Of a DNA stretch of 64,000 bases, positions 14,537 to 60,162 are shown piece after piece; the stretch's first letter is position 1; every line of letters starts with the position of its first letter. The DNA comes from Botryllus schlosseri. Its lineage: Eukaryota. Under the pieces are notes generated by a model. That model searched no databases. It worked only from the letters and a program-made list of their open reading frames with translations, and was not told where the DNA came from. Location of the stretch: NCBI GenBank assembly GCA_051294905.1, contig CM119372.1:620001-684000 (forward strand), given 5' to 3'. The position numbers and the translations under genes were made by a program.

Positions 14537-17500
14537 CTGCGAGGGCAAAGATTGTGTTGTTTTGCAATCATGTATCAGGGCTCTCAAACTGAGAGCCAGG
14601 AGGCTTTCTTGGAGGGCCGAAAAAAATTTGAAATAATTTAATATCATCCACTTTTTTGCTAATGACCCACTATATGAGTGAAAACGGGGATGGGCACATC
14701 AACGTACAACTGATACCGTTACTGGGACATAACTTAACTATTTTTTTCAACACTACATTCAATGCAGTATAATTCATTAACTTGAAGAGCCATCATAGTC
14801 CTCATAGTAAGAGTTAACGGCACAATCACGCACCGACATAGAAAGAGAGATTAAAATAATAACCAATGCGACAAAGCATGAAGTACCAATACAATTATAA
14901 AAACAACGCCAGACGAAGTCAGCTGTGGCGGTAAGTATGCGGCTGTCAGAACATACAAAACAATGAGAATCAGTTTATACAGTACACAGTGAGACATTTA
15001 AAAGTTGCATAGCAGCATATCTGAAAATTTGGTAAGTAAGGTCATCACTGACGCCAGACCTATTTAAAGCCGCAACCAAAAACGAAGGGTGGCCAAAAAC
15101 TTGTTGTCTACCCAAGAAAACTGTAAATTTGTATATTGATAACCATCACTTCGTCACACAAGTCAATAATGAGGTCAAATATTAGAAATATGGACGGTAT
15201 GGCAATCGTGACTAATACCATGATATTATTAAAATTGTTACATTATTATATTAATAAATTAAGTTAATATTAATAACAAAGTATGAGGAATAGAGTGCTC
15301 ACTGGTTTGTATTCTCTTCTGCGGGCTCTCTTGACTCTGTTTTCCGTCTTTACCCCTCCCAACCACTGAGAACGAATATGTCCTGCCCGGCTCCAAGCCC
15401 GTCACGATATGTTCTGGCAGGAAGGTCTCCATGGACGTTACAATAGTCCCGGTAATGGGATCTCGTACAATCAACAGGTAAGTCACGGCACCTGATATGA
15501 AAGATAATGTATTTTAATCGAATCAGAGGTGGTTAGCAACCATCGTGCTGTTCAAGAAAAAATAAATTCAATTTTTACTGGCTACTTGATAAAATTGTTA
15601 GGTTACCTAAAAAAATGCTACACACCAATTCTGGATCTATTCCAACCAATAGCAGCATTGCTATATAAGAATAAACTTTTGGATTTCTTCAATAGAATTG
15701 TTTTTCAAATTTTCAAATTTTACCGGCTACCCCATGAAATCGAATTGACCCAAATTCGTTGTAAATCGTTTTTTCAGACAACCCTTATGAGCGAAATGAT
15801 AGAAATTCAGACAATTACTTGTACTTCTACTTAAGTAGCAACTACTTGAGTAGCAACTCACCGATGACGGGTTGCCATTTCAGTTTGACGTTGGTTGTTG
15901 AGATTTCGACGATTTCCAGCTCCGTCGCGGACTCGGGAACTGCATGCAAATGAGAGAGCAGTTAACAACTAGAATATTTCCTGCTTTTTTCAATCACGGT
16001 ATAATTAGAATGATAGCTAAACAGTTTTTTACAAATTAGATTCGAAATAGAATTAATGAACTCGCAAAAAAAACTTACAATCAGACGGAAATACAAGAAA
16101 GTTCAAACCACAAAACCCAAACCCAGGTTGGACAACTAGAAAAGTTCCATCTTTTCAGAATTGCATCATAACTAGAATCACAGCTACTTAGATGACCAAC
16201 ATGTCACACTAATTAGTGTAATTACACAAATAGAATCATCTAATTGTGCAAGTGTACTCACCGGTAGCTACAGTAGCCGCGGCGCTCTTTTGGCTTTGCA
16301 AGCCGTTAGTAGCGACGGCCAGGACACGAATGCTGAATGTTTGGCCGGCGCCTAGTCGAGATAACGTGAAAAAGTTTCTGGTGACATTGTGAACGACTTG
16401 CCTATCGTCGTCATTTTCCACAAACAGACGGTAATGCTTCACGCCTGCGACACGATTTATTTCATCACAGATGTGAAAAAACAGAGTAGTTTGTGGTCAG
16501 CTCACCGTGAACTTTTCCCCAGCGCAATGAAATTGTCGACGTGGTGACCTCTTCCACCTCTAACGATCCTGGTGACGCGGGTACTGTTAACAGTGTAAAA
16601 TATCGGTCGGAATCTGCACATTCCTTAGTCTAATCTAAATTGCATAAGTAAAAGTTGTAAAAGCTTGAATTTTCAAGTCCAAAATTTTCATTGTTAGGTC
16701 ACAAAAATAGGTGAAAAACATTCATTTTTCAGGTCAAAAAATAATTGCCCCATATGCCGTGTCACAATCACCTGTCTGCTGCCTCACAACATTGCTCTCG
16801 TCAAAATTGATGCGACCCTTGCTTCCGACCGAACGCACTCGGAACTCGTACCAAACTCCAGCCGACAGATCTTCAATTCTCATCTGAAACGAATTTTTTT
16901 TAGATTTTTTCCATTTCTATCATTTTGGAAAAAGTTTCAATTCACGCACCACTGTCCCGGTGGTTCTCATGTCTCGGTCTTTTCCGTTTTCGTCACGGAC
17001 AGCCAGCACGTAAGCGACCGCACCTGATAAGAAAGGCAATTTTATGAGACTCTAGGGGTAAAAAAACTCCGATATGCAGATGAAGAAAAAAATTGATATC
17101 GAAATAGACCCGAATATTTTCGGCTGACACTTGTCAGGGGTAATCGTCAGCAACTAGTAGTGAATTGCAAACAACATTGTATATCTTTCCAATTCTCTAC
17201 TAGTTATTGACGATTACCCCTGACGAGTGTCAACCGAAAATACTCATTTCAGCATGAACATATCATTTCATCAAATAAGGAAATTTTTGAAGAGAGAAAA
17301 TGATTCTAACCAGTCGCAGCATCCCACTGCAAGTCGGCAGTTGATTTTGTGACGCCGTTCAGTCTCAAATTTCGCGGTCTGTCGGGGACTGAAATTTGAA
17401 AATAGCGTCTGCGTTAGGAACAATACAGCTCCGGCAAATATTTGGGGCTGGGCAAAATCATTTGAATACTCCAAACTGAATCGTGTATTCATTCACATGA

Positions 17501-20500: not shown

Positions 20501-23500
20501 TCAAAGAAAAACTCAAAAACTCCGCTTCTACGGGTTGGAATTGAGTCAAATTTGTTTTGCATCGTTTTGTAAGAGAGCGTAACAATTTCATGGGGTTGAT
20601 GAAAAAATTTGAAATTTCTTTTTGCATTTTTAGGTAAATTCAAAATTTTCAAACTGTACGAAATCCTCGATTACCAGTTGGAATGAATTCAAATTTGGTG
20701 TGCGTCGTTTTTTAAGGCAACCTAACGATTTAATCACCTAGCCAGCAGGATTCAGGAAAAAAAGGTTTTATCGAACAGCGCTAGTGCATAGAGAATAAAG
20801 GGTTACTCACGAAGCTTCCTCTCCTTTCACAACAACCTCCGAGCGGTCAATTGAAAACTCTTCCAATTTCGAGTACTGCAATCCGTCTTTTTTGTTATCG
20901 CTTTCTCTCTCCCACTCGACCTTGACGTCTTTACCTCGAGCGCGACCGCCGAACGGGTTCAGGATCTCGCTGCCGACGTTCCAACGCATCGTGACGACGT
21001 AGAAGTCCGCGCCTGGCAGTAATTCGATATCGATTTCAATCGCAAATTTAAATTCGGCAGACAAGACATACCGTTCATTTCTTTCCAGCTCATTTTCACG
21101 AAGTCCGTCCCGATCTCGGAGATTTTGACGTTACTCGGACGCTGGCAGACTGGTGAAAATAACACTCATGTTTACTCCGCAGTTGCCCGCAATTAATGCA
21201 TTTATCTTTAATTTGAGACCACATCATATTTAGAGCACGATGCGGCCCTAACTTCATATATTGTCAGCAACTCGCGAGCAAAGGTGGACAACTAGCTTTT
21301 CCAATTAGATTATAACTGCAATGATGGCTATACAGATATTACAATCAGAATTACTGACTTCGCAAAAAAAACAGGAAAATGAATGCAATACTGAAGCAGA
21401 ATGAAATACAACTGCAATCAAGTTCGCTTCATATGAAATCAAAAGCACGAGAGCGGCAAATGGCTGCACTCCAAGCTTGGTTCGTTTACAGTCGTTTTGT
21501 AGCATTTTCAGGAAACGCCAAAATTAAGTTAGAATTCAAATGAGACCATAGAAACATTTCACAAATTACATTAAAATTAGATTGTCTTGATTAGATAATT
21601 AGTAGGGCAAGTTTTTGCGACTTTTGCAACTTTTTTTACAGCTTCAGGCAGCTTCCTAAATACTCTTAGAATATGTAGAATGCTGTTTCAAGCTGTTTGA
21701 AGGAATCTTATAGTGCAACTTTTTGCAACTTTTGTCCATTTTTTTCATGCAATTTTTTGCAAAATTTTGCAACTTTCTCGATTTTTCATGAAATGATTTT
21801 CGATTCTGGTGAAATACACGGCCAAATTCGACAGAAACACCATGAATCAGCACCGAAGTAAGGCTTTTACGGGTATTTCGGGAGCTGAGCCAGAAAATTG
21901 ACCTTTTTTTAGTCAATCTGGGAAGTTGACCGCTTTTTTTTTAGTCAACCAGGCCAAATGTGGTCAAAATGCAACTTCTTCAACTTTTTTCAAAAATAAA
22001 TGCAACTTTCCACTGATTTAACTGCAACAAAAACTTGCCCTAATAATTAGTCTAATTAGACGCCTAGAATTATCTAGTTGTCAAAGTCTGCTCGTGAGAT
22101 ATCACTCACTTGACTTTTAAATCAAACTTTGCTGAGCAATAAAGGTAAAAAATAAAATGCGCAGAATGTTCATCGGACTTACTCGTTTGTACGCGCATAA
22201 TATCACTGGTGATACCGTTGCCTCGATTTTTCCTGTCTTTGGATTGTACGTTGACTTTGTACCATTTGCCTGGTTCTGCGTTGCGCGTAACCCATTCCGG
22301 CCTCTGTGTCTCGTAGAACGCCGGCCGGCCGATTTCAGGAGTGATTTCAACCACGTAGGAAGAAGCTCCTGCAGTAAAGTGACGCTGGAGGTTAAAAGAT
22401 GTAGGATTTTTAGAAGTTGATTTTGTTCAATTTTCACCTTCGACTTCGTTCCAACTGACTTTGAACAAACTGGTTTCGACGTCGTCGATTACAAGAGACT
22501 TGGGAGTGGCTGGGACTGAAAGCAAGGTCTCGGTTAATTTATCTTCATCCATTTAGGCTTGATGCGGAGCAATCAAAGGCCATAAATTCTGCCATCATTT
22601 GTTGGATAATCCCGCATGCGCGAAAAATTATTGAGACGACAGATTTAGCATCGTTGGGAGGGGCCGTTCATACTTTCATCTGTGTGCCTTGGAGTCTACT
22701 GTTATCAAAACACATCAGCCAAGGCCATGTCAACAAAAGGAGTTTGTGTACCACCTAAAAATAGTACATTAAACGCTCTCTCATTTGAAATTTCCTGCTG
22801 GTGACGTCATATTTCGTGTTACGATTGTTGATATACAATGTTCTTTCCAATTCTCTACTAGTTGCTGACGATTAACCCTGACGAGTGTCAGCCGAAAATA
22901 TTCGGGTTCATTTCAATATGAATATACATTATATACTATTGAATTGTATACTGCAGTTCTGCACCTCAAAAAAGCTCTTATATCACTGTGTAACACACAT
23001 CTATAGGAATGAAATAGTATAATGATTCTTCAAATACGGTATTCAAACCATTCACTCACTCGTGTTCTCAGCAAGGGGTAAACTGACCGCCGATTGTCTG
23101 CCAGAAGCCCCAACGGATTGCACTGTGATGATATAATCAGTTCCGGGCAACAATTTGGAAAAAATGATTTCCGTCTCGTCAGACTCGATGACTTTCTTGC
23201 TGCCGGAGACCTTTCTTTCCTCGTACGAAGCTCGGTACGATGCGGCTCCTGTAACAAATCCCAACATTTACGGTGACTGTGAGACGACTCAGAATCCATG
23301 ACACGCATCGCATTACCTGGAGTGGTGTCCCAAATAACAGAAATGAAATCCATTCCGACATTTTTCACTCGAAAATTGGCAGGAGTCATGGGTACTGTGG
23401 GTAGAAATTGACATTAAGATGTTAATATATAGATAGGTTATCATTTGTCACATCAAGAAACAATGAAAAAACAAAATGGCAATAATATAGATTGGGATTC

Positions 23501-26500
23501 GGTCGCCAGACAAAAGAATACCTGATGCAAACTACAGTCGATTATAAAGAAATATATATTAAACCCACACACATACACATAGAGCAACGATTTAGAATAT
23601 AGATGCTAAGAAAATGACGTAATATGGTATTGTGTTTAGAAAATGATGTAGAAAAAACTTAATAGCATATAGCAATCAATCAATATTAATGAATCATACT
23701 TAATTTCAGGAATTGCAAAGTAACCGAATCTCCCCGGAAATTTGCCATAATATTAAATTAGACTGAATATATAATAGATGGATGGAAAAATAATATTAAC
23801 ATTGAGTAGCAAAATTTGTACAGCACCTGTCTGTTCTTTGCGGCTTTTACTCTTTGCGCTTTCAAGGCCACCGGCGCCGATGGACGCCACCCAGAATTGA
23901 AACCATGTTCCCGAAGACAATTCGCGAATCGACATCTGACAAATTTATGACAAACTCAGCTACTGCAACCACATCTTATCCAAATACCGAGTATCGTAGC
24001 ATCATAGTGGCGTTACCAAGCGTATTTTGGGTAAATGAAGTCGTCGTTTTGCTTCATATGTTACGACAATCTCATCACTGTGTAATGTGTAGCGAGTAGT
24101 TCTAGTTCTAGTTGCGACTTTTGAAACGTTAGCAGTTCTAATTCCAGTTTTAGTTGCAACCTTTTCTTCTGATGTTTCCTGCTTCGTAACCGTTTCTTCT
24201 TCGAGGCCTCCATAGTAGACAGCGTACTTGACCGCGCCTGAACATTCAGAAGGTTTTGACTTTATCTCTAATACCAGTCAGCGTTAAAGATTACCTGCAA
24301 CTTTTTCCCATGCGATGATAACAGTGGAGTTTGTGACTTTGCTCACGACAGGTTGAGACGGCACCTCGGTCTCTGAAAATGAAAAAAAGCTATTCCTTCC
24401 AGCACACAAGTGTGAAATCAGACACGAACTTGTGCTCTTTACGACGGCTTGAGCATTTTCGCTGGTCCGGTCCGAGGTCACTGCGGCCACGGTGAAAGAG
24501 TAAACGGTCCCGGGCTTCAGAGATGACATGGTGGCTTCCGTCCCGTTGAACATTTTTACGTCAGGAGTCGAGCTTTCGTGACCAAAGGTTACCCGGTATG
24601 ACGAAGCCCCTGATTAACGAGAGATCGCATCAAAGATGGTGGACGGTGGTGTAGTGTCACATCACATCTTTTTTACATAAGTTGACTCGAGTCATGATTT
24701 GACTTGAGTCAACTTTTCATATGAGTTGACTCGAGTCAACCTTTCCACATGTCACGAGTCACTTTTCATATGACTTGACTTGGCTTGAGTCAACTTTTCC
24801 ACATTAGTTGACTCGAGTCATGATTTGACTTGAGCCAACGTTTTATACGCCTTGACTCGGGTCAAATATTTCCAAATGACTTGACTCGAGTCAACTTTTT
24901 TGTATCTTGACTTGACTCGAGTCATGATTTGACTTCATTCAATTTTTCATATGACTAGACTTGAGTCAACTTTTGTACATGAATTGACTCGAGTCAACTA
25001 TTTCATGACTTGACTTGAATCACTTTGAAAAAATGATGGGAACTGATTCGATGTTTTAAAAATGCAGATCGAGTCGTGACTCAAATTTCTTCGAGTCAAT
25101 TTTTCCTTCACACAAGCACATCTGTCTCGAAAGCCGAGAAGCAACTCACCTGTTACGGCGTCCCATGTCAAACTAACGGATGAAGTTGTCTCTTCCAGAG
25201 ATCTCAAGTTTTTCGGAGCGGCGGGAACAGTTTGAATTCGGATGATTTCACTTTTTTCTTTGTTTATTTGATCTTCGACCCCGACCGACAATAAATAAAA
25301 CTCAAACCAACGACCCGGAGCCAGATCGCTGAACGTGACTTCGGTTTGGGTCGAATTTTTCACGACCGATTCTTCTTTGCCATCCTCCTTCATGACGACA
25401 GAGTAGAAAACCGACCCTGTAATGGTAGACACAGTTCTCTGAACCAGATTTGGACAATTATAATGAAATATTCAGCTTTTCCAAATCAGATCAGAATTAC
25501 ATTAATTGAATTCACTAAATCCTGAAAATCTAATTCAATTGCAAATCAGAAAGAAATACAATCGGGTACACCGAGCTTGCCTCGTTTCATAGGATAACGT
25601 TCTTCTATAGCATGTTCATAAAGCCCTGAAATGAGACCAGAATGGAGCATGGAAACATTTCACGAATCAGGATGAGAATTAGAATTATAACTAAACATTT
25701 TTTTTACAAATCGGACTAAAATTTGAGTGATAGCTACAGATTTTTTCCAAATTTGATTAGAATCAGAATTACTGAATTCTGTGAATCAGAGAGAAATACA
25801 ACAATATCAAATTCAGTTCACATCGAAACAGAGATGATTCTCATAGATAAGAGAATGGCAAATGTCTGTACAGCAAGCTTGGCTGGTTTCCAACGGTACC
25901 GTTCTCCTGTAGCGTTTTCATGAAACCCAGAAAATGGATTTGAATTACATTGAGAGCATGAAAGAATTTCACAAATTAGATTAGAATTAGATTACAGGCA
26001 GACAACTAGACACCTAAAACTATCTATCACCTTGAACAGGCCGCCAAGCCAGCTGTACGCTGCTGTTTGTGACAGACACGAGTTGAGGGGCCCCCGGGGT
26101 CTCCGGCACAGTTGCGACCACGATAGGCTCGGAGAATCGCGACTCGATGAAATTTGAACCGACGCTTGCGACTCTGACCCTGTGTCGACTGCCGGCGTTC
26201 AGTCGGTTGACTTTGTAACTCGTTCGGAAAGACATGAATTTGCGAGGCTTAGCTTTGGTGTCATCGACGTACTCCAGTTCCACAGAATAATACAATGCTC
26301 CTGCAAAGGTGACAATTCCATTATTCGATTGAATAATACATTCATATTGAAATTAACGCGAATAGCTTCGGCCGACACTTTTCAGAGGTGATCATCAGCA
26401 ACAAGTACAGAAATCAAAAGAAGATTGTACGTCAAAAATCATTTCATCAAATACGATGTCACGGCATGTAGTTCTGAATAATCAAGGCGAATAGATTGCT

Positions 26501-29500: not shown

Positions 29501-32500
29501 GAGACGGAGCCCCGGAGCCGTCCATTTTCAGCGGAGCCGGAGCTGGAGCCAGTTCTATAAACAGTAGCTCCGGCTCCGATGTATTTCATAGGATGATATG
29601 CTCTTACTGATGGCTGAATTCGCATAATATTACGATAATCGTTCAAATAATTGACTAGCATGTCACAAAACAGGATTGATGCTTATGTGATATCAGCAAT
29701 ATACCTAATTAGTATTGAGACGAATATATAAGCGACGCCATAGGATATAACCATGACATTGCTGCACATGTTGAGAGAAACGTTGGACGAGCAAATGCAC
29801 GTTCTTCGTTGATAGTTTTTTAATCGTAGCGCCAAATTGGATAGTGTGTTGATAGTCGACGAATGACAAACAGACTGGTAACGCCTGGTAACTGTATACC
29901 TTACAAACCTCCTATTAACCTGCTTTGTTTTGTCTATGTCATGATTGTTATGTCACACTTTGCCATGTTGGTTTCACTTTAGAATCTGTTTCTATCATTT
30001 TCGTGAAGCAAAAATTCTTCGAGCTATAATTAGGGCAGAGTATGGATTGTGGGGATTCTAGTAGAGTAGTATGAAACGATTTTTTCAAGTACTGAAATTA
30101 CACATATCTTACCACTTAGACTGAATACATAACCAATAATTATAGATTCGATACTTTATTCCCACAGGTAACCTTGAAACTACGTGATCAACATCAGTGT
30201 CATAAAGTGAAACTAAACACGCATGGTCGTCAAAATACCGAATTATCCTAACGTGACGAAGAAACTGTCCTTATTTTGATTGTGGTCGCATAAAGGGTAC
30301 ATATTTGAACTTGCCACATCACCACACAATATACTCAAAGCCTAATACTGGACTCGGAATCAAATCATCCAGTACTGGATTTTGCCTAGCCTAACTTATT
30401 CTAGATCTATCATAATCATTATTGCAATGAATATTGTGACGAAAGCAAATAAAATAGTAACAAATTAACCGATATCCCACCTCGGACATGAATCCATGAG
30501 ATTTCAACGTAAGTGGTTCCCACGTCAGCCAGAAATAATTCCGGGGGCGGGCTTGGCGCGGTGATGGTAGCGGTCCGTTCGCTTTCGCGTTGGTTCCTAG
30601 AGCCTTCGATAGCCACAGAGTACAGGCCGAAGGAGTAATGAGTGGACGGCCTCAGTTTCTCAATGGTCAACTGTAAAGAAATGAGAACATAGATAATAGA
30701 ATAATATAATAGTGAAACGGTGAGAGTGAAATAGTGAGATATTTCCTGGTAGAGTCGAGATAGTTGCCGAAATTTGTGCTACTCGAGTAGAATAGTTGCC
30801 ATAATTGGCAAAATATATAAAGTCAACGAAAAGTACAGATTAAACAACCAACCTTCGAGTCCTGGGTCTGCACTTCGGTCAATCTCCGCAGATCAGAAAT
30901 AGAAACAACATAGGAAGAAGCCCCTTTGATCGGGTCCCACTCCAAAGTCACCGTGGTCGATGTCACCCCCACAACCCGGGGCTTTCCAGGAGAGTCCGGC
31001 ACTAAAATATCGGTTCGTATCAACCACACGGTGGCTACTACGGTTGTTCAAAAATTCCTCTTCAAATTTTACTGTCTCTTTGATAAAATTGTTCGGTTGG
31101 CTAAAAACACTGCGCAGGAAATTTGGATCAATTCCAACCTGTAGAAGTGAAGATACTACAGCTGGAAAAGCTTAAATTTGTTTTAAAAAGGATATTTTTC
31201 AAATTTCACTGGCAACTGCATGAAAGTTGTCAAAAAAATCAATGTATACAGTAACAAATTTAGCTGAATTCCAACCGGTAAAGGTGCAATATTGGTGTTC
31301 AAAGTTTTGGATTTCAAATAATATTATTTACTATTTGTTTCAAATCCAAAATTTTGTACCGGTACTCCAATAACTTCACTTCTACCGGTCAGAATAGAGC
31401 TAAATTTGGTGTGCAGAATTTTTCAGCCAACCTAACAATTTTATCGAAAAGAAGAAAAAGGTTATTTTTGAACAAACCCCAGTAGCTACCCATTCACAAC
31501 AACTCACTGGTCTCTATCAACGTCGGTTCGCTTTCCGCACTCTCAGCGAGATCGTAGCTGAACGCGATCAGAGTCGCAAAATAGCTCTCTCCCCCGTTCA
31601 AGTTATTGATGGTGTATCTCATATTGGTCGTGTTGCGCGATTCAACGAGACCGTCGTCACCCTCGATACGAACGTTCAAAATATAACCAACAGCACCTGT
31701 TGCAAAAAAGGGATACAGTTTCAAGCGTTGGTGAACAATAACAAAGTAATTCTGCATTTTCCGAGCGCTAGAACAAACTCTTTCCACTTGCATTGCTTAC
31801 TCAAGTGCTTTCGAGACTGCTTTCAATTCTGGTGGAACAGTTTTTGGACTAGAAAAGCTCTTACCGGTGACTTTCTTCCAAGTAACGGTGACGGAAGACG
31901 CGGACACTTTGATAATTTGCGGTTTCTCCGGTATCCGTGGCACTGAAAGGCAAAGCAGTTTCAAACAGTTGGGCAACTAGAATAGATTCAGTTTTTCAGA
32001 ATTTGATTAGATTAAGATTTGTAACTACACAGTTTTTTACAAATTAGATTGGAATTTCATTGATGGCTACACAGCTTATTTTTCAAAATTAGACTAGAAT
32101 TACGATTACCGGTAACTACAGTTTTTTCCAAAGTATATGAGAATTAGATACCCGTATATAGCTCCACATTTTGTCTCCAGATTAGATTGGAATTAGAGTG
32201 ATACCTATGAAGTTAATTATATAAAAATAAATAACAAAAAAATTGAAAATTTTCTGTTCACCCCATGAAAGTGATAGGTTGTCTATAGATACGATGTTCA
32301 CCAAATTTGGTTCAATTCCAACCAATAAAACCAGAGTTATTGCCGTCGATAAATTTGAATTTGAATAAAATAGTATTGACGGTGGGCACCAATATAATGA
32401 ATAATTGAAGAATTGGTCACCGTAAATACTATTTTATTCATAATCCAAATTTTTTTGACGGTAATAACTCTGCTTGTACTGGTTGAAATTCAACCAAATT

Positions 32501-35500
32501 TGGTGACCATCGTTTCTGTAGACAACCCAACACTTTCATGGGGTGAACAGAACATTTTCAGTTTTTTTGTTATTTATTTTTAGATAACCAAATTAGGTGT
32601 GGAGGCTTAAATTAGGTAACCTAACAATTTTATCAAGTAGCCAGTGCGATTTGAGAAAAAAAGTCATTTTTGAAGAGCCCTAGTGTACAGTTCTCCTGTA
32701 GCATTTTCATGAAAAGCAAAATTCAGATTCGGATGTAAATGAGAACAAAAAAGATTTGAATAGAATTGGATCAACGGCATTTCCTCTATCAAGTCTAATT
32801 ATACAACTAGCAATATGTAACTGTCTGGGTCCAGTTTCAAAGAAAATTCAGACAACTCACCAGTTAACCCTCGAGCAGGGTCACTAAGCTCCACGTTCAT
32901 CCGACCTCCGCTACCCACCGACCGAATCCTGAACGTGTGCCAAACTCCAGGCTTGAGATCTTCGAATTTGTAGGCAGTATCGCTGGTTCTGAGTTGTTTC
33001 GGACCGGATTCTCCGTCCGCTTGCAACTCCAACATGTATTGTATGGCTCCCTGCACGCTGTCCCACTCGAACGTGAGGGTGGAATTTGTTTTGTCCACGA
33101 GACGAGGTCGGCCGGGCACGTCCGGCACTTGGCGGAAAAATCAATTTCAGTTTGCAGCAAACGACGCTGGCAAAATTTTTAGGCTCCAAACTTTCTGACC
33201 GAATCTCATCAGGAGTGAAGTAGCAAAATTGAAATTATAGACAGAATATTGTCGTTGTGATGCATGGCGATGTTGACATATATTATATCATGTCGTATAT
33301 ATTGGTATGTGCATGAATGTTGTTCAAAAACAACTTTTTTTCATATTTACGGGATTCACTGATTACATTGCCTACGCTACACAGCAAATTTTGCTCAATT
33401 CCAACTTATGAAAGCCGATGGAGAGCCAATTGAAATTTCGAATATTTTTTGGAAACATAGTATTTACAGTGGCAAATTTCGTAACTTCGACATGACCAAA
33501 AATGCGTTACAAGCATGCCTGAAGGGAGAGTGATGCTTTTTCTGTGTGTTTACATCTTGAAAAGGGCCTGTGATAGTGTTTGGGTAAAGATATCACCAAT
33601 TAACGAAAAATAATTCTGACACTGATTAGCTGAAAACTAGTCAGCTCCATTGAAATAGCATTGTTACAACAATAATTCTTTTCAACGCTTTCAGGTGGCG
33701 ACTAACTCTGAAGGCCCCTAGCCGCGTCCTAGTCTATATTGTCATTTGTAATGTAGGCCTACCTTATTTTCCTTGTTTCTTGGTGTGATGAGTAAAAACC
33801 TATCTATCTATTCATGTTATGATGGAAACTACTCACGAACGGCATATAACACAGCGCAGTTCCGGTATAACAGAAATAAAGTGGGCAAAATTTGCTAAAA
33901 ACGTGGGTCAGTCAAAAAGCTTGGTAAATTTGCCAATATTGTTTCTATAATGAAGTTTTGAACCTCAAGAAGCCAATTTCAATTTTGAATTGCAAATACA
34001 TCGATTCTCATCAACTCACACGTTATCACCATCTGTGGGTCACTCTCCCTGCTTTGCACGCCATCTTCTCCTACGGCAGCCACAGTGATTAGGTACGTGA
34101 TGCCCGTTTCAAGTCCGTCAATTTCCGCCACTTGTTGGCTCACTCGCTCTGTCTTGAGAAGTTCTTCGGTGTTTGCGTCACGGAATCTCAGCAAATACCA
34201 CTTGGCGCCTGGTGAAAAGAAGGCATTCGATTTGCCAACAACGTGTCGAGATTAGATTTTCGAGCCAATAGTGATAAAACTGAAAACTAGCACCTTCACT
34301 GATAACCCCAATATATTCAGCCGGTATGCAAAAGATATGGTGTCTAGCTTAAGACGCATTTTTAAAACTTCAGAGGGCTTTTTTCGAGGTACAGAACTTC
34401 AATATACAATTGAGTAGTATATTCATATTGAAATGAACCCGAATATTTTCGGCTGACACTCGTCAGGGGTAATCGTCAGCAACTAGTAGAGAATTGGAAA
34501 GAACATTGTAGATCAACAATCGTATCTCGAAATATGACGTCAAGAGCTTGAAATGAGATCAAATGAGAGCAAGGCTGTAATGACTCGAGTCATGACTCGG
34601 CTCGAGTCAGACTCGAGTCACGATTTTTTGACGACTCGACTCGAGTCATTTTCTTAAAATACGGAAATGACTCGACTCGACTCGAGTCAATCTGTGTATT
34701 GACTCGATTTGGACTCGATACATTGCGCATGACTCGAATCAAGTCATATGACTCGAGACTCAGACGACCAAGACCTACATATAATTGTAATTTCGAAGAA
34801 TAGTAAAGTAACCACACAATTGGGATTCCGTCTATCTTATAAGCTACCGGTACTTGAAAATGCGACTAGAAACAGCTAAAAGTGAAGGAAATGAGTATAT
34901 TATAAATGCAAACCATTCGATATCACCAGAGTTATAAAAAGTGGGTTTAACAAGACGTTAACTGGAAACTGAGCAATCAACACAATGACTTTGACTCGGA
35001 CTCGAGTCATAATGCCATGACTCGGACTCGAACCTCTGCTTGCTGACTTGGACTAGGACTTGACTCGGTGGTGAATTGAAAATGACTCGACTTGACTCGA
35101 GTCAAAACTATAAAATTGAAATTGACTTGTGACTCGGAGCCTTGTGACTTGGTTACAACCCTGGTTCTCACATAATTCCCTCTCAACATGCAAACGCCCG
35201 TCTCCACACCATTTCAGATCAAATTGAAAATTTTCACATCGATCAGGCATTACATTTGGTGCATAACAAACTTTGTTTCAAGAAAATCGGACAATTCGTT
35301 ACAGAGTTATTGCAATTTGAAAAATGAAATTTTGTGCTCACTCGGTCGTGACGCTATACCGCTTGGAACCTGTGTCTATTTGTAATTAACATTATAGTGA
35401 TCAAATTGCTGCCGGGCAGACTTAAATTTTTGTAGTAAGATATTTTGGTATATGCTTATTGTGATAGACCTAAATTTTTAACTTTACTAATGGGGGTTAG

Positions 35501-38500
35501 GGGTCAAATGTCAATTCAAAGTCATCATGTTTTCAAAATCAGCCATGCGTAACAAATATGCAACTCTGCCTAGTGTTATTCTATTTAAACCGATTTTTTC
35601 GAGGAAGGTGTCAAATGGAAGCTTGGAAAGAGTAGAACGTTGCTGAATTGGTATTGCATGTGATATTTGACTGCCACTTGTCTAAAACTTCATTGAAAAG
35701 ATGCGCTCTAATTAGTGCATGACCTGTTCTGCATAAAGTGTCAAAGTATATTTTTAAGCGTGTTCCTGTCTTATATTCAATTCATAACCAATTCTGATGG
35801 ATTCTAATTGGTAACAGCTTTCATATGACACTTTACTTATGAATTTTGAGTTAGATAGAGTCGTGCCACAGAGTTCAGAAATATCGTCACGCATCACTGA
35901 TTTTAACATACTGGTATGTCTATTTTCAAATCAAGATTTGAACCTTGATTTTGTAATGCGGAGGGGAATTCCTAGTGAGTGAAGAACATGTACCACCAAT
36001 CATTGCTTACCAGCATTACTACCTGCAGCCTGTATAAGTAATGATCTTAGCAGTTATAATTGTACGCAAATTTCATGGTTGAGTAAGCACGAAGTCCTCA
36101 TTCTTCATACTGCAATTGCTCAAGAACCGATCAATAAAGTTATATTAATTAAATTATATTCTACTCAGAATTGGGTACTTTAGTAGTACATGATATTGCA
36201 GAGAAATCTGAGAGGGTGTGAAGACGAATTGAAATATTATTTGGATGTTGACTCAATTTACTGATAGGCGGTAAACCCAGAAGCACCCTTGCAAGTATAA
36301 TGCACGTGCAATAAATAAAAGTACTCTGAGCATGACAATAATTATCTACTGAAACACATTATCATATAAGGAGTAGAATAATGGCAAAATCAGATAATCA
36401 CTGAATTAATATAATTTAAATTAATTACAAAATGACCTATTTTGCATTATGCACCATATTATATTTTTAACCATGTTGCTGTCAAATATCAATAACAAAA
36501 CTAAGTTTCGTGCATTCTAGTTGGAAACAGCTTTCAAATGACACCTTGCTTGTGAATTTTGGTTTAAATAGAATTGCACCAGATGAGTTAAAAAATATCG
36601 TTATGCATCACCGATTTTAACATATGCCAATTTTGAAATCGCGTTTTGAACCTTGACCCAATACTGTGGAGCGGGGAAATTCGTGCTAAGTGAAGAACAT
36701 GTACCAACAATTATTGCTAAATAACATTCAAACCTTTACTCTACGTAACCTCTGAGCTTTATCAGTTACAATCATACACAGGTTTTGTGTTGCCAAATTT
36801 CATGGTTGAGTAATCACAAAATCATCATTTTTCAAACTGCAATAACTCGAGAGCCGTTCAACGAAATTGTCCGAAATAAATTTCGTTGTACTCAGAACTA
36901 GATACTTTAGTTGTATATAAATTTAGAGAAAAATCTGAGAGGGTGTGGAGACGGATTTAAAAAATATTTGCATGTTGACAGGGAATTACTCTGTAGTGAA
37001 ATAGGTATAGCTGAAAAACTACTGAACAGTCTTTAATTAATGAGATGTAGAATTGTCATTATAATATCGCTTCGAAATTGTCAATTATTCAATTTACCTC
37101 TCACTCGATTCCATTGCAGGGTAACCGAGTTTTGAGTGATGCTCTGCACACGCAAACCACCGATTTTTTGAGGCACCGTCTGCACTTTCAAAGTAGCCGG
37201 GTTTTCTGAGTCGTACTCCGAATTCTGTCCTAGTGAATAAACGTTGAATATGTACACGGTCCCAACTCCGAGGGCTTGAGCGCTGAAGAAAGTCGCTGAC
37301 ACAGTTCTTTTTATCCAATCCGGAGAGTTTATAGCCTTGAATTGTACGAGATATGATTCAACGCCGACTCTAGCGTCCCAAGTGACGTTGATAGAACGAG
37401 TTGTTCTAGAAACCAGTTCCAAACGGCTTGGGTTGGTCGGCGCGATTCTGGCAGTCACCGATGATCGTTCCTTGCTTTCTGTACCAGCGATTGTTTTTGA
37501 TGACGCGTCAAACCGATACAGTTTTCCTGACAACAACGGCTTGACAATGAACGAGGTTCCGTTGATTTCATCAACTCGAACTAGAAGATCAACTCCAGTA
37601 GATGTCTCGATGTCGTAGGTTCTCACAGAATACGTTGCAGCCCCTGAACAGACGAACAGACAGTTATTTCCAAAATAAGAAAAAAAGAATTCAAATAAAT
37701 ATGATACGGTCATATATAGCAGACCTACAACGTTATGAACATAAATATGTGTTGTAAAAAGTTTAAAGAAGAAATATGTATAGCAATATATTTGAATTTG
37801 ATATGCATATTAGGCAGGTACTTGAAAAGCGAATTTTGGAAATATGTTGGTCTGGCTCTGATGAAATGTTCCTTTTGGGTAAAAGACATAAAAAACCTAG
37901 TTTAAAATATTGAATTGCTATTCATTAATGTTTAGAAGTGGCTCAATGGATGCGAATTTCTACCCATAATTCGTCTAAAAGTGAACAGAATTGTCAAATT
38001 TAAGCAGGATGGACCATATATGATTTGGTGTATTTACTGTACTGATGTACACCAAACAAATGTCCATAAAAAGTTAAAAATGCTTTAAAAAAGAAGACAT
38101 TCCACAGTAATATTTTCATGGACTGTTTTATAATGATATCTGAAGTCCTTAGACTCTGTGCGAGGCATGTTTTTCAATTCGGTTGAAAGTCCTTCTGTTG
38201 ACACAAACTAGGTCGGCATATTTTGATTAAGTCCACTCTCCAAGGCATACAAATGAAAGTGTGAACGGCATCTTCCGACGACACAATCTCGATCATTCTT
38301 CACACAAACAGAATTATCCGACAAATGCTTGCCAACGGCAAAGTTCATGGCTCTTGCCTGTTCTGATTCGAGCTTCAGGGGATGAGTTAAGGGCGACCGC
38401 ATCATGCACGTCTTCTAATAGATCTAGTGACATGTTGATTTACGAGTGTCAGCTGAAAATATTCGGCTTTATTTCACTATGAATGTTTTATTGAATTCTA

Positions 38501-41500
38501 TAGCGAAGTTCTGTACATCGAAGAAGCTCTTCACATGTTTATCCATGGATCCCGAGCTTCTCACCTTTTACCGATTCCCACTCGAGTTTGGCCGACCGGT
38601 CCGTCACGTAGCCGAGAGAAATCTGCGGAGCGTCGGGTATCGTGTGTACGATCAGACGATTGTCGCTCTCACTTCTCTCTCCCCTGTGAAGGACGGCAAG
38701 TTCCAACACGTAGCTCCTGCCTGGGGAGAGTTCTACTGCTCGATAGCTGTTGCCAGATACACTTGTAGATATGACAACCTGCACAATTCACATGCGAAAT
38801 ATGTCATAAGGGCACAGTTAAGATTTTTGTCGCGTGTTACTACTAGGGTTGTACAAAATCAAGTACGAGTGATACAATTCTGAATCGCGTATCACATTTC
38901 GAGTCAAGTATTCCAGTATGGCTCATTACTCATTTTAGGCGTCCAGTTCTACACATCTTCAAGACTATTTGGTAATTTTTAGCAGACCTATTTCATTGCA
39001 CTTTGTGCAAATGCAGTGGGTCGGTCGTGACATCAAAGATATGTCATTTCCATTAACGTGCGTAGCTTTGAACTACATGTTTCATATGCTGTGGTACGAC
39101 CAATCGTGGTTTACAGCCTTCAATAGTGGAAAATGGTCTCGAAACTACAATTCCGGCTGATAAATCAAGAAGCGTATCATTTCATTACTCGAACCATTAC
39201 ATTTAATACACTTCAGGTTTGGGTACTCACCTCATTGGTGTCTAGTCTCTTCACCGTGATGTAATAAAATACGCCTCGTAAATCAGAGGAAGCCCAACTG
39301 ACGGTGAATGAGGTTTTTGTGACTGACAATGGATCGAGAACCATCTTTGGCACCTCAATTCCTGCACAAAAAGTATCGTTGAATGTTGATAAACGTGGAA
39401 TTTTGCGAGAATTTACCGGTAGAGAGAAAAGACACAGCCCGCGGCCCTCGTTTCCCATCGCCGTCAATGGCCCAGGCGTCGAGCGAGTACCGAGTTCCTT
39501 GCTCCAAGTCGCCGAAAGTGACTGATGTTTGATTGGATGCGGCCGTTTTCGACTGAAAAGCCTCTTTTCCACCGGAAAGTCGAATCTGCCCAAGACAACA
39601 AAGTGTATAGTAGGGCTCTTCAAAAATGACTTCTTTACTCAAGTCACACTGGCTACTTGATAAAATTGTTAGGTTACCTAATTTAAGCCTACACACCAAA
39701 TTTGGTTCAATTCCAACCAGTAGCCGCATTGCTACAGGAGAACAAAGTTTCTACTTATTATATAAAAATAAATAACAAAAAATTTGAAAATTTTCTGTTC
39801 ACCCCATGAAATTGTTAGGTTGTATATAGAAACGATGTTCACCAAATTTGGGTGAATTCCAACCAGTGGAAGCGGAGTTATCGCCGTCGAAAAATTTGGA
39901 TTATCAATAAATAGTATTTACGGTGACCAATTCCTTAATTATTTATTATAGTGGTGCCCACCGTAAATACTATTTTATTCAAATCCAAATTTTTCGACAA
40001 AAATAACTTCGCTTGTACTGGTTGGAACTCAACCAAATTTGGTGAACATTGTTTCTATAGACAACCTAACACTTTCATAGGGTGAACAGAAAATTTTCAA
40101 ATTTTTGGTTATTTATTTTTATATAATAAATAGAAACTTTCTTCTCCTGTAGCAATGCGGCTACTGGTTGGAATTGAACCAAATTTGGTGTGTAGGCTTA
40201 AATTAGGTAACCTAACAATTTTATCAAGTAGCCAGTGCGATTTGAGAAAAAAAGTCATTTTTGAAGAGCCCTAGTGTATAGGCTCCTCAAGCTTAAAGAC
40301 AAGGGTTGGGCAAAATCCAGTAATCGAGAGATTACATTGTGAACCAAGTATTAATCATCCGAGTCGAGTATTCAAGTATCATTCATTATGATGTCATACA
40401 GATGTGACTGATGTGGAATGTTCAAAAATGTACTTTTTATAAGATTGCCAAGAAAATAATTCCATTTCTATGCCCAATAAAATTAATTTGGTACTTTAAC
40501 AACATCGGACTTTCTGATCACAAAATCCCAGAAATGTCATTTGCACTAACGTGCGTGGTACTGTGGCGTACTGCTTATTTCATACGCTGTAATACAAACT
40601 ATCGTTGGAAAATATTATCAAAATGATAATTAATAAAAATATTTATTAAATTAACTCAAAATGTAAAGGAGCGTATAATTTCAGTACTCGAAGAATTTCT
40701 CTCTCACTACTCGAAGCGAATTATTACAATTAATGCTCAATTCAGATACAAGTATTCGAATACTGTGTCCAATCCTAACGAAAAGTGAATCATTTCTTCG
40801 AACCTGAATGAAATATTCCGATGCAAAAGGTTGCGAGGTCCACACGACCTGTATAGAACGGTCCGTGATGCGTCCGCGCTCCAGCTGCATTTGCGAGATT
40901 GCTGAACATAAATATTGTATGAACGGTACAATCTCACAATATGACTGACATGATACCTCCAGGGTTGCAATGACTCGAGACCGACTCGAGATGCCATTTT
41001 TGAAAATGACTCGACTAGAGTTGAGTCGTTTTTCTATATTCCTATGATTATATCAAATCATATGACTCACGAAAAATAGGACTTGTCTATTACCTATTTC
41101 AATAAACATATTAGGAGTAGATGTGGTCAAAGTACTCAGTGTTGGTCCTCAAGTAAAAGCAACAATTTGCATCTAAGCAAAAAGTACGTATTCTAGGTGT
41201 AGTTTTACCTAAAATACTGTAAGGTAAAAGTAGTAGTTTAAAATCAAAACCCCTTGAGGAAGTAGTACAAGTAGGCAAAACGTACTTGAGTACTTTGATA
41301 AAGTAGAAGTACTTCCTTACTGACCGTCTTTGGATAAGAGTGAGGCAGATGGGCATACTATGAATGCGTGGAATTCGTTTCACCTCAGCAGAGTTGTGAA
41401 AATGAGTTGAACATGGCTTAGACTGAACAGTAATACACAGTACCGTAGTCCGTATGCCTTTACGACTTCTGACTTGGACTCGGACTCGAGTCTCAACACT

Positions 41501-44500
41501 ACGACTCTGGCTTGAGTCGGTGGTGAATTGAAAATGACTCGACTTGACTCGCTTCAAAACTGAGTAAGATTGACTTGTGACTCGGAATCTATGTGACTTG
41601 GTTTCAAGACTGGTTTCACGATTGGCACTTACGTGGTTTGCAAATTGTTTCCGCGATCCATTCTTCAAATCTGACCAGATCGATGAAGGTCTGTAATACG
41701 CGAACGTGCCCCTGAGTTGGTTCTGATGCAATCTTTGACAATTCAAAGTAATTCGGTCCTGGAATACAACAACCATAGCAGAGTTGGCCAACTAGAATAT
41801 TTGCAGCTTTTCCAAATTAGATTAGAAATAGAACCCAGAGTGGAATTGGTGGAAACGTCACGGATAACTTTCGGCACTTCTTCGTTATTCCCCACACATC
41901 GAAAAAATGATCCCCATGACACCAATAAATGTTTCCCATGAACATTACCAGAAAAATTTATAAACGTCAAAATGAATTGTTCATCGCGTTGGGGTGGGAT
42001 AGACGGATATTAGGAATGGGGGAGGGGGATATTAGGATGGGTTAGGGTTAGGATATCCTAATATTAGGGTTGGGGATATTAGGGTCGGGAGATATTAGGG
42101 TGGGTTAGGATTAGGTTTGGGGATATCAGGGATGGGGAGGGGGATATTGGGGTGGCTTAGGATATCCTAAGATTAGGGTCGGGAGATATTAGGGTGGGTT
42201 AGGATATTCTAAGATTAGGGTTGGGGATATTGGGGAGGAGGATATTAGGGTGGGTTAGGGTCAAGGTTGGGATATCCTAAGACTAGGGATGGGGGAGGAG
42301 ATATTAGGGTTAGGATATCATAAGATAAGGGTTGGGGATATTAGGGTCAAGGATGGGGTTAGGATATCCTAAGATTAGGGTTGGAGGTGAAGATTACAAC
42401 ATTCCAAACCCTAATCTTGGGATACCTTGACCCCAAATTTAACCCTAATCTCGGGATATCCTACCTCAACCTTGACCCTAACCTACCCTACCACCCTCAC
42501 CCGCAACCCCAATCTTAGGATATCCTAACCACCCAAATAGCCCCTTCCGCAACCCTAATCTTAGGATATTCTAACTCACCCTAATACCGCCTTCCCCAAC
42601 CCTAATATCTCCAACCCCGACCCCAATATTCCCTTCCCAGGACCCTTATATCTCCCACCCCGACCCTAATACTCCCCTAGTCATAATCCCCAATTTATTT
42701 TGACGTGTATAAATTTTCACATGTTCATGGGAATCATTTATTGGTTTCATGGTGATCACTTCTGGATGTGTGAGGAATAACAAAGAAGTGCCGAACTTTC
42801 TGTTTAATTACCTAATTATTCTATGCAGAAAAGCTCTCATCACTCAGAATTTATTTCAAAAGATGAACCGACATTCCATAGGGCAGTGGTTCTCAACCTT
42901 TTTGGCTTCGCGGACCCCTTTTGACCGTCACGGACCCTCGCGGACCCCCTCAAGTTTCAGTTCAATTTTAGCTCTATTATGGTGCAACCTTCATCTGTCT
43001 TCTGCAAATATGAACTGTAGGCTTGTGATAAACAGCAAAATAATGATTTTTCTTGAAGATAACATCATACTATTTATGTAGAAATTGGTGGACAGTTAAT
43101 ATTTCAAAGCTAATTTTGCTGCTGTATTTCTTGAAGTACGTGGTCGTGTCTTGAAAGTCCGCGTCTTCGTTTTGATATGAACGAGGAGTGCCGACAACCA
43201 TTTCCGCAAAGATAGATGGAAGCTAATGCAATATTAACGCATAACGCTTCCGACGATACTTTTGGTGTGATCGCAACATTGATGGCACCAAAATGAAGAA
43301 ACACATATTTTATGCACGTATCACGTCCAGCATCTAGCGCAGGGACGGGCAGGGCAACATACGGACCGCGGGCCGCATTCGGCCCGCAGAGAGTTCCTAT
43401 CGTCAAAGTGAAATCCTAATCTAAAAGTATATAGACAAATTTTATGCTCCAAAGAATGGATCCACGTTTTCCAACCAGAGAAAGACTGTCATGAAACTTG
43501 TTTTGTTCGGTTTTACATATATATTTACGAGCATACATTTTCGACCATGAACAATTGAACATTAACAAGACAAGGCTGCATACCAATCTAACTGGTGATA
43601 TGAATTTCAGGGTTGGAGTGTATAATGCTTTGATAGCAACGAAACACTCCTTGTTCATAAAAAAATCAGCTTTGTCGATAGGGCATCAGCAATAAGAATG
43701 CGCCAAATCTGATAGCCGAGCTTTAAGAGCAGGTATATCATTGTCCGATTTATGACGAGTGTCAGCCGAAAATATTCGGGCTCATTTCAATAAGAATATA
43801 CTATTCAATTGTATATTAAAGTTCTGTACCTCCAAGAAGTTGTTCCTTGCATTGGGACAAATTATGGAAATACTTCGGAAATTTTTATTTCAAACGACTG
43901 TTCATTAATTTGATGAGACTGACAACTTCAAATCGAGAAGGTTTTGCATACATAGCGAAGTCACCCTGATTGACGTTATTACTATCTCCATATTTTTATT
44001 TTTTCCACAAACCCCAACAAAAGGTTTAACAGCAATATGTTTGTATCAGCAGGTTATTGGAAAATTGGCAATGAAAATGAGATTCCACACTACGATAGTC
44101 CATGTATAGGACGATTATTATGATGATATGAGTCATGAGGTTTTAGCAGTTGGGGTGCGAAACTGCCTCATGCTTTCTCAAATTAAAAAATAAAATAAAA
44201 ATTCGGTTATCAACCCTTTTAAAAATTTAGAGGTCTCGCGGACCCCCTGAAATTGCTTCGCGGACCCCTGGGGGTCCGCGGACCCCCGGTTGAGAACCGC
44301 TGCCATAGGGGATATAGCTACTAGTAAAGTTCTAGAATTACAATTCCATAACTGAATTCTGGAAAACTTGGAAATTGAATGCAATTCTGATTCAGATGGA
44401 AATCCAACAGAAATCGAGTTCACTTCATATCACATCAGAGTTCATCCTCATAAGCACAAGAATGGCAAATGTCTATACAATGATCTTGGCTCGTTTCGCA

Positions 44501-57590: not shown

Positions 57591-57771
57591 TGGGGCTCGG
57601 GCTGCTGCGAAGTGTGGACTGGCGAAGAAAATTTAGGTCACGGGCGGCTTACCAGACGGAAATCAGTTTTAGTTCAGGCAGCGCACGTATACCGAGTTTA
57701 GGATTGGCAATTGTTAGTCTGGGATTCAAACGGCGGTGGTGCTGCGTATCTGCTGGTATTTCATAAAGAAA

Positions 57772-60162
57772 ATGGAAGTGGAATTGAGATGCCCTGTGGG
57801 AATATGCGGAATAGAACTCTCGTCAACAGCAGCTATGTTTCGTCACTTGAAAGGCCATATTCGATCTGGAATTATAGTTAAATGTCCATTTTCTAACTGT
57901 CTTAAAAGGTACGGTGTGGTTTCCTCGTTTTCAAGTCACGTTAGCCGAAATCATACCGTTAGTGAGCACCATCAGAATCTGGTTCAGCTTACTACTGAAA
58001 ATGCGTTAAATAGTTCAATTGCTGACGACCCGGTGCTTGATACCAATGCTGCAAACGGAGCTATGAATCAGGGAATTAATAACCCAAGCCTAATGTTTGC
58101 AACAAGGTTGGAATATAAAAACCTCATTCCGTCGTCAGTCGTCCAGGACATAATGTCGGAGCTTCATAAGTTATTAGCTTCCCATGGAAAAGAAGTTGAG
58201 AAGCAGCTTAAAGCAATCTTAAAAGGTAATACTGAAGTTACCGGTACATCTTCTACTGATAACTTCCTGTCTCAACTTAACTACGTCAATGAAAAGGTAT
58301 TGAACTTGCATCATCCATTATTGTCAGAATATTCTCGTAGAACTGCTATTGCAAATTTATAGTGCTATGTGGCTCCAGTTCCTTATTTCATCGAAAGTTC
58401 ATTTGAAGCAACTAAAACTTTTTATTACGTGCCAATTTTGGAAACCATAAAAACTGTATGTTCTACTGATTTTATGAGACAACAACTACTGAAGGTTCGT
58501 TCAGCATCGTCAACGTCAGAGTTTTCTGATATTTTTGACGGAGAAGTTTTTAAATCGAACCCTCTTTTTTCGAAAAAGAATGCTATCCAATTGATATTGT
58601 ATCAAGATTCGTTTGAAATATCAAATCCACTTGGTTCGGCTCGAAAAAAACACAAAATGTTGGCTTTTTATGTAACGTTTGCTAACGTTCCTACCTATGC
58701 TCGTTCCAAAGTTGCTCAAATTCAGCTTGTTTTGATGTGCAAAGAGAAATACATTACCGACTCGAACTTTTCTGAACTGCTTCACCCGCTCATAAGAGAC
58801 CTCAAAATCCTCGAAACAGAAGGATTAGATATTGGTATATCTGAAAAAATATGTGGCGGCATAATATGTGTCGCTGGCGACAATCTTGGTAGTCATTGGA
58901 TTGGCGGTTTCATCACCAATTTTTCAACCGGCAAGTTTTCATGTAGATATTGTGTGACACCAAGAGATAAATGGCCGGACTACAGAACTGAATGCTCACT
59001 CCGAACCATTGAGACATATAATGAATCTGTTGATCAATGTGAATCCTCTTTGATAAACAGCCATTGTGGAATAAAATTCTCTTCCCCGTTGAACGAACTC
59101 GAGCATTTCCATGTTTGTAATCCTGGTCTTCCTCCCTGTTTAGCACATGATCTGTTTGAAGGCCTCGTGGCACGAGATATGATGGTATTCATAAAATGCT
59201 TGGTTCGACGTGGGTGGTTTACAGTTCATTATTTGAATTCAAAGATAATGAATTTTCTGTATGATATTGAAAGTTCGACGTCTCGTCCAATACCAATAAG
59301 AGAAGAATGTCGTAAATTGTTGGGAAATGCCAGCCAGAATTGGTGTTTCGTTCGATATATTCCGTTATATCTCATGGGTAAAATTGATGATTATGAGGAC
59401 CCGGCTTGGAGGGCCATTTTAGTTCTCCGTATCATTATCGAGACTGTTTGCTCTCCGCGTATCACAACTGAAAATATTGCTTTATTAATTCACCATATAT
59501 CTGAATATTTTCATCTCCTCATGCTGTGTGACCCTAGCTTGACATTTCTTCCAAAGCATCACTTCTTATCTCACTACCCGTGGTTGATCACCCAGTTTGG
59601 GCCATTGGTACATGTTTGGACTCTCCGTTTTGAGAGTAAGCATTCGTATTTCAAAAATGTGGTAAGAACCAAACAAAACTTCATCAATATTACTAAAACA
59701 CTCTGTGAGAATCATCAGTTTCTCCAGGCCTATCTCATTTCCAACTCCACCTTATTTCCAACGAAAATGAGTAATCAAAAGGCCTATACAGATCCATGTC
59801 CTGAGTGGCTTGTACCGATTCTTTCCAGACAAGGAATATTTGAGCATTACCAATTGTTACGAGAAGCAACTTATAAAGGAACGCAGTACAGGCTGGAGAA
59901 CTGCTATGTTATCCTGAGTCGTGATAGCATTGATTTGGAAATTGGAAAAATCAGAATGTTGGTACAACATAAAGATGTGGTGTCTCTTATTGTTGCTCCT
60001 TGCAAAGCTGAATTTTTGCCGCATCGTGGCTGTTTTCAGATTCATGGGCCTTATGCTACTGTACTAAGGTTTGTTGATTTTCCGCAGCTGTTGGATTATT
60101 TTCCACTGCATGGGTTTCTTGTTGGAATGTCGCTGTATACAGTACTTAAGCATAATGCTTGA
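57772..60162 (+). pseudogene. CACTA/EnSpm transposase (two N-terminal C2H2 zinc fingers + DDE core), ~796 codons, single in-frame TAG at 58360-58362
   Basis: ORFs 57736..58362 and 58369..60162 are in the same frame. Motifs LYQDSFE.SNPLG, GDNLGSH.IGG, CRYC, HDLFEG, PKHHFL.HY and WTLRFESKH. Confidence 0.88.

Follow-up and report, generated by a model that had tools for sequence, protein, structure and literature searches.

The window, the whole stretch of 64,000 nucleotides of Botryllus schlosseri DNA analysed here, contains a hammerhead motif whose stem II is nearly absent, and a preliminary description pointed out that loop II of this motif is complementary to a segment upstream of stem I. 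The question raised by the locus is whether this pairing would stand in for stem II as a pseudoknot or would form an inhibitory alternative hairpin. Hammerheads of Penelope elements, the type of repeat in which the motif lies, have so far been described as slow and minimal, without tertiary contacts and with an unknown role.

The complementarity itself was confirmed. GCTGACG at 22864-22870 matches loop II TGTCAGC at 22886-22892 by six Watson-Crick pairs plus G22870-U22886, and only 3 nt (22871-22873) separate this segment, here called the arm, from stem I. Stem I (22874-22877 with 22904-22907) would cross the arm helix (22864-22870 with 22886-22892), and the combined fold would be a pseudoknot. 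Plus-strand 7-mers that pair fully with loop II occur at 54 of about 64,000 window positions (0.08%), and the chance of meeting one when a handful of registers is allowed is therefore about 0.4%.

The motif and the element that carries it

From 22864 to 22907 the window copy reads, in this order, GCTGAC (arm), G, ATT, AACC, CTGACGA, G10.1, TGTCAGC, C11.1, GAA, AATATT, C17 and GGGT (Table 1). The positions of the core from C3 to A9 (22878-22884) are given in the established hammerhead numbering. All core positions, C3-U4-G5-A6-N7-G8-A9, G12-A13-A14, A15.1-U16.1 and H17, are present (22878-22884, 22894-22897 and 22902-22903), and cleavage is predicted between 22903 and 22904. Stem I is open-ended around the cut site and has four pairs in young copies, which covary across families; in the window copy one of the four is broken by a C-to-A change at 22875 that the preliminary description did not mention. 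Judged from its sequence, 22864-22907 is a type I hammerhead in a 3' pseudo-LTR, with predicted catalysis.

The repeat carrying the ribozyme is a Penelope-like element. Its ORF gave an RVT_1 match in Pfam, its homologues matched PF00078 and PF26215 and some of them PF01541, and longer copies contain a reverse transcriptase ORF with a C-terminal GIY-YIG-type domain. In the window fragment the endonuclease region ends with a stop codon at 22770-22772, and across 442 columns the fragment shares 84.8% identity with a young copy that has the reverse transcriptase and endonuclease ORF. The copy in the window is itself a decayed remnant, truncated and weakened in stem I.

The ribozyme stretch is present at more than 10 places within the window. 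A pattern of 28 letters in which any loop was allowed was found at 4,795 places in the 495-Mb genome, compared with 0 for a control pattern. When the flanks of the best 30 copies were compared, the 3' end was fixed, the 5' ends were variable and an inverted truncated copy often adjoined. In full-length copies two ribozymes on the same strand, 2,683-2,692 nt apart, flank an ORF of 845-848 aa, whose ATG begins at the 15th nucleotide past the predicted cut (three full ORFs, two loci). The ribozymes are thus located as described for Penelope dimer hammerheads, in the pseudo-LTR of an element with reverse transcriptase and C-terminal GIY-YIG domains and on both sides of the ORF. A minus-strand reading as a Helitron-type 3' hairpin followed by CTAG was rejected, because the similarity between copies crosses CTAG and continues into the reverse transcriptase/endonuclease ORF.

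The window copy lies antisense to fibronectin type III exons of a host gene. Pfam fn3 matches were obtained for two minus-strand ORFs, and a similar exon was seen by eye near 23300-23410. The repeats of this gene are found at 37081-37809 and 24998-25471 on the minus strand, with many short exons between them. Ribozyme copies with their core at 34466, 17137 and 3624 are intronic and sense to the gene, and could in principle pair within one pre-mRNA. On the plus strand, 38431-38883 is a tandem junction at which a decayed pseudo-LTR leads into the first part of the element ORF, and a piece of the ORF is inverted at 43593-43752, adjoining the copy at 43753.

Table 1. Parts of the motif and related features in the window, and arm and loop II of the ten element families
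Feature	Position	Strand	Remark
5'-truncated Penelope-like element fragment	22545-22979	+	end of GIY-YIG endonuclease region and 3' pseudo-LTR
Pseudoknot helix, 5' arm (candidate)	22864-22869	+	pairs with 22887-22892
G capping the pseudoknot helix	22870	+	invariant in 10 families; opposite first loop II position
Linker (22871-22873) and stem I 5' strand (22874-22877)	22871-22877	+
Catalytic core C3-A9 (CUGACGA)	22878-22884	+
1-bp stem II (G10.1 22885, C11.1 22893) enclosing loop II (22886-22892)	22885-22893	+
G12-A13-A14, palindromic stem III AAUAUU (22897-22902) and C17 (22903)	22894-22903	+
Stem I 3' strand	22904-22907	+
ATG of the 845-848 aa ORF (where copies are full-length and in tandem)	22918-22920	+
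Inverted partner of the decayed copy	17092-17185	-	arm and loop letters normal
Decayed copy of the preliminary description	17184-17271	+	arm 17206-17211, loop 17229-17234, cut site lost
F1 (window)			arm/loop GCTGAC/GTCAGC
F2			arm/loop GCCGAC/GTTGGC
F2b			arm/loop GCTGAC/GTCAGC; U3-A8 core
F3			arm/loop TGTGCC/GGCACC; U3-A8 core; five pairs, not six
F4			arm/loop ACTAAC/GTTAGT
F5			arm/loop ACTGGC/GCCAGT
M1 and M2 (metagenome)			arm/loop TCTGAC/GTCAGA
M3 (metagenome)			arm/loop TGACGC/GCGTCA
M4 (metagenome)			arm/loop TCCGAC/GTCGGA

Variation of the arm and loop II within and between families

The pairing had been linked to a joint change of both sides in the copy at 17206-17234. This copy reads ATTGAC/GTCAAC, so that one C-G pair is indeed compensated by U-A, but the neighbouring G-C pair, left out of the preliminary description, is broken (A.C). 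Also missing from this copy are 7 nt, among them the cut site and the stem I 3' strand. Exact genome-wide counts of the 33-mer gave 3,448 unchanged, 39 arm-only and 42 loop-only places and a single place with both changes, which is the copy in question; 0.49 would be expected by chance, with P(at least 1) = 0.39. A double change that is unique in the genome, compatible in number with chance and located in a copy without a cut site does not serve as evidence of covariation, and it is concluded that it is post-insertion decay.

Among 113 F1 copies, 620 pair cells were unchanged, 33 were broken on one side, 9 were G.U, 1 was compensated, 1 was doubly broken and 14 were gapped; about 1.2 compensated cells are expected by chance. 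No covariation was therefore found within the window family, neither in these copies nor in the exact genome counts. This is expected for dead copies, yet it gives no support for the pairing. Copies decay neutrally after insertion, and selection can therefore be read only between element lineages. Two F1 subfamilies with 86% DNA identity are identical over the whole ribozyme.

Element families were gathered in three ways: with a core pattern that had no complementarity requirement, through DNA likeness, and through endonucleases resembling that of the element, which led to 79 loci in metagenome contigs. The core-pattern search yielded 345 matches including duplicates, compared with 116 for a control pattern, and chance matches were excluded. 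Ten families had a readable ribozyme of the same build. Over these, 59 of 60 arm:loop pairs are intact. The eight distinct arm/loop combinations give 47 of 48 pairs, a number reached by only one of 40,320 re-pairings, the true one (mean 31.9). When 20 registers were compared, the best one lay 7-11 nt before C3 in all families, and at 8 nt in seven of them. A MAFFT alignment was used unedited, with the M3 arm and the M4 3' half out of register. Of its cells 86.4% were paired, compared with 72.1% after shuffling, and 0 of 500 shuffles matched the pairing or the covariation score, a result that relatedness may inflate; slid registers gave 26-42% paired cells versus 86% for the true register. Covariation, absent among genomic copies of the window family, is present between element families.

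On the endonuclease tree 14 changes of pair state were counted, of which about 12 end compensated, one leads from G-C to G.U and one is broken; about 8 compensated changes are left if M3 is taken as a single register shift rather than four separate changes. The ten families are few and related. The weakest is F5, with two copies in one locus (L234) and its endonuclease taken from another, more decayed locus (L235).

The surroundings of the pairing are conserved as well. The G after the arm is invariant, whereas the loop II position opposite it is U in seven families and A in the other three; the G is therefore a cap and not a required wobble. Together, the linker and the stem I 5' strand measure 7 nt in seven of the ten families, and the spacing from the cap G to C3 is only 6-10 nt throughout. 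Stem II is a G10.1-C11.1 pair and no extra base follows A9 (both 10/10). The catalytic core is kept, with double changes from C3-G8 to U3-A8 in F2b, F3 and M1. Stem III is AAUAUU in the window family, AAGCUU in seven families and a near-palindrome in F3 and M4, and stems I and III also covary across families. Taken together, these comparisons point to an arm:loop II pseudoknot that is real and under selection. The suggestion that it stands in for the loop-loop contact of the near-absent stem II is supported by this covariation between families and not by the copy originally put forward.

The endonuclease regions of the ten families are 44-62% identical to that of F1, and all ten fall into one endonuclease clade with a support of 100/99. 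The 11 outgroup elements were chosen for a readable core; in every one of them, as judged by eye, an extra U follows A9 and stem II is a hairpin. Five of the 16 in-clade tree rows were omitted (L101, L103, L111, L137 and L151), as the contig or element ends before the ribozyme, and so were the distant loci L156, L159, L160 and L166, for which there was too little downstream DNA. No relatives were found in the viral contigs searched, and the prokaryote genome contigs yielded five loci, of distant elements only.

Some further copies and motifs were seen during these comparisons. Most copies of M2 (L096 group) have U3 with G8, an unusual core pair. Within the window, a decayed copy of F4/F5 type with GAAA gone and the arm/loop match lost lies at 44880-44972 on the plus strand, and an F3-like piece at 29942-30005. 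The repeated motifs L034/L036/L063, L041 and L056 were left out, having no endonuclease nearby and no stem I that was clear by eye; L034, L036 and L063, with six further listed places, contain the multi-copy motif CTGATGAG...CGAAA, again without a clear stem I or a nearby Penelope endonuclease.

Proposed fold and alternative explanations

The explanation preferred here, and considered likely, is that an activating pseudoknot replaces helix II in a dimer-type Penelope hammerhead. In the clade, helix II would be reduced to the single G10.1-C11.1 pair, and six bases 5' of stem I would pair with loop II, giving a pseudoknot helix of six pairs with a cap, G.U or G.A. If it behaves as in the solved PK hammerhead, this helix would stack on G10.1-C11.1, take the place of helix II and hold stem I alongside. 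The loop strand runs directly into C11.1 in eight of ten families, with one extra base in F2 and F2b; being flush with C11.1, the helix can stack on the G10.1-C11.1 pair. From there the 5' strand would pass into stem I across 7 nt, a length that hardly varies; all seven of these pair in F4 and four in F1.

Since the arm helix needs only the 5' half of one copy, it may form first and give the 'enzyme' half its fold in advance. As the hexamer of stem III is self-complementary, the active form is probably a dimer. Following the published dimer model, it would consist of the two ribozymes flanking a full element, about 2.7 kb apart, with one cut 14 nt before the start codon and another past the ORF. 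Because the helix between loop and arm lies in the 5' half and would form early, a single helix, at two different stages, most likely underlies both the 'alternative hairpin' and the pseudoknot.

A different possibility is that the arm:loop II helix acts against cleavage, as a hairpin holding the ribozyme off. Covariation alone is blind to whether a helix activates or inhibits, and the simple arm:loop hairpin is stable in all ten families (-3.5 to -8.2 kcal/mol). An inhibitory role is nevertheless highly improbable, as the helix uses none of stem I, the core, G10.1-C11.1 and GAAA, and its register, flush with C11.1 in eight of ten families and with the G cap by G10.1, is that of the activating helix in the crystal structure; if the helix were absent, the ribozyme would lack a helix II altogether. 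The inhibitory hairpin of the preliminary description found no support as a separate state, since arm:loop II pairing occupies neither the core nor the stem I 5' strand and has the register of the crystallised activating pseudoknot. A hairpin that does bury the core (22878-22891) is formed by loop II with the core CUGAC, and is dominant in only two of ten families. It leads to a related explanation, a conformational switch in which loop II would pair by turns with the arm (on) and within this core:loop hairpin (off), with folding or the element's protein gating cleavage. In nested folding the core:loop II hairpin reached 0.81 in the window copy and 0.79 in the young copy, and the arm helix 0.06 and 0.09, with a program that does not score pseudoknots and cannot add stem I to the arm helix; as it stands, this prediction counts against the preferred fold. 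The hairpin dominates the predicted monomer ensembles of F1, where two other misfolds occur, and of M1 (0.90). For F1 the hairpin energies are -5.1 (core:loop) versus -7.8 kcal/mol (arm:loop). The accessible text on a Poseidon-type hammerhead from lizard reports cleavage only after protein addition (PMC11167929), and in the models the core:loop hairpin may likewise make F1 slow or protein-dependent. As a switch, however, it is unlikely: in the other eight families the hairpin reaches at most 0.11 and it is absent in F3, so that it is rare across families and therefore not conserved, and it follows from the resemblance of the arm to CUGAC.

In four RNA runs, of which 3-6% each was read against the young copy as reference, no pile-up of ends was observed at the cut site, nor any other position at which molecules started or stopped in numbers, and the accessible parts of a published Penelope study likewise describe none. 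Reads were on both strands and 66-98% of them continue into unrelated sequence, which fits passive transcription of scattered copies. The missing cut ends in these runs, together with the published insertion of another Penelope element in vitro without ribozyme cleavage, according to the accessible text, would be in line with a pairing that acts at the level of DNA or protein binding, as a reverse transcriptase or endonuclease signal, with the ribozyme catalytically irrelevant. Such a role is even less probable than an inhibitory helix, given that the core, including its U3-A8 double changes, is kept in 10/10 families and that covariation extends to stems I and III. Chance complementarity, or the relic of a short tandem duplication of CUGACGA, is scarcely credible. 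The preliminary description had noted a second CUGACGA within the upstream segment; 22865-22871 does read CTGACGA, but an arm CTGACGA, 13 nt upstream of the core (12 nt in M1), occurs in only four of ten families. It was rejected as a second catalytic core, since it has no stem I partner and is not conserved, and may be a relic of the arm's origin. The chance level of the double change at 17206-17234 also suits this explanation, whereas arms unlike the core (ACTAAC, TGACGC, GTGCC and ACTGGC) still match their own loops. A duplication could account for how the arm arose, but would leave its maintenance unexplained.

Relation to known hammerheads

The structural principle has been known since 2011. 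In its accessible parts, Perreault 2011 (PMC3088659) describes pseudoknotted hammerheads with a 1-bp stem II and a 6-bp pseudoknot, whose disruption or shortening slows cleavage 20- to over 100-fold; compensatory changes rescue cleavage, and the pseudoknot was reported to form first in the constructs used. In these ribozymes, as in the Penelope motif, loop II can form Watson-Crick pairs with nucleotides beside stem I, a pairing that covariation supports. The tested 1-bp example is metagenomic and of type II, whereas the Penelope motif is of type I. Highly repetitive type I ribozymes were excluded from the stem-length analysis in that study, and in the same parts no mention of Penelope elements was found (PMC3088659). 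Chrysovirus type I hammerheads with a 1-bp helix II are slow, at about 0.01 per min according to the accessible text (PMC13725137).

The closest likeness is to the PK hammerhead crystal structure PDB 8YDC, in which, as far as the accessible text describes it, a pseudoknot replaces helix II (Zhan et al., 2024, PMC11300833). In both, helix II is G10.1-C11.1 and loop II is wholly engaged in a pseudoknot with a segment 5' of helix I, and a purine cap lies next to G10.1, G:A in 8YDC (placed from the printed sequence) and G.U or G.A in the Penelope clade. In 8YDC an additional hairpin, helix IV, presents the arm in its loop and comes with an A-rich strand in the minor groove, whereas the Penelope clade has no conserved helix IV and the arm joins stem I directly; a small hairpin around the arm is predicted in F1 only and none is conserved across families. 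The pseudoknot helix has four Watson-Crick pairs and two caps in 8YDC versus six pairs and a cap in the clade, and helix III is long in the 8YDC construct while stem III of the clade is a dimer palindrome. The Rfam hammerhead models gave no match in the whole window at the gathering threshold, in 401 nt at E up to 10 or in six loci at E up to 5. With helix IV absent and no Rfam match, the Penelope motif would share the working principle of the PK hammerhead without belonging to that group.

For Penelope elements a dimer model of minimal hammerheads has been published (Cervera and De la Pena, 2014, PMC4209133, accessible parts). The motifs described there share with the present one the type I topology, the location in the pseudo-LTR, a short stem I, a palindromic stem III and the U3-A8 variant. 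All 56 representatives in Fig. S3 of that study have a hairpin helix II of at least three pairs, and nearly all an extra base between A9 and G10.1, whereas the present clade has no extra base and a 1-bp stem II with a pseudoknot, and so departs from the published consensus. In their accessible parts, reviews describe Penelope hammerheads as lacking tertiary contacts (PMC6155905, PMC7761336). No description of a pseudoknotted Penelope hammerhead was found in the accessible parts of PMC8557442, PMC6765202, PMC10085705, PMC7229834, PMC11167929, PMC6466107, PMC13725137 and bioRxiv 10.64898/2026.07.22.740005. The same holds for the open literature covered, a scope that most subscription papers fall outside. 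Lunse, Weinberg and Breaker 2017 (RNA Biol 14:1499), who reportedly found that Penelope-associated hammerhead variants with a short stem III cleave as dimers, is the likeliest place for such a description and may pre-empt the present finding.

A covarying pseudoknot in this clade would mean that Penelope ribozymes are under selection for an active fold. The natural compensatory pairs provide a short construct for asking whether Penelope ribozymes are fast and what role the cut near the start codon has. If the proposed fold is correct, the ribozymes of the clade are missed by Rfam and by descriptors that require a hairpin helix II; thousands of genomic ribozyme copies go undetected by Rfam.

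Several observations were made beside these analyses. In the accessible supplement of PMC8557442, the 3' ends of the records before '>Naiad-3_Nbra' and '>Naiad_Hcon' resemble, by look, the non-circular type-CSG permutation, which according to the accessible text of PMC10085705 is reported only from two metagenome sequences. In the window, a 167-aa frame without Pfam match lies at 49245-49748 on the minus strand and presumably resembles a transposase dimerisation region. On the plus strand, 57718-61297 contains three long open frames (214, 599 and 332 aa) with cysteine/histidine motifs and no Pfam match, which give the impression of a DNA transposon. Finally, arrays of the palindrome GACTCGAGTC are found at 24680-25026, 34584-34615 and 61980-62075, and are probably the ends of another repeat family.
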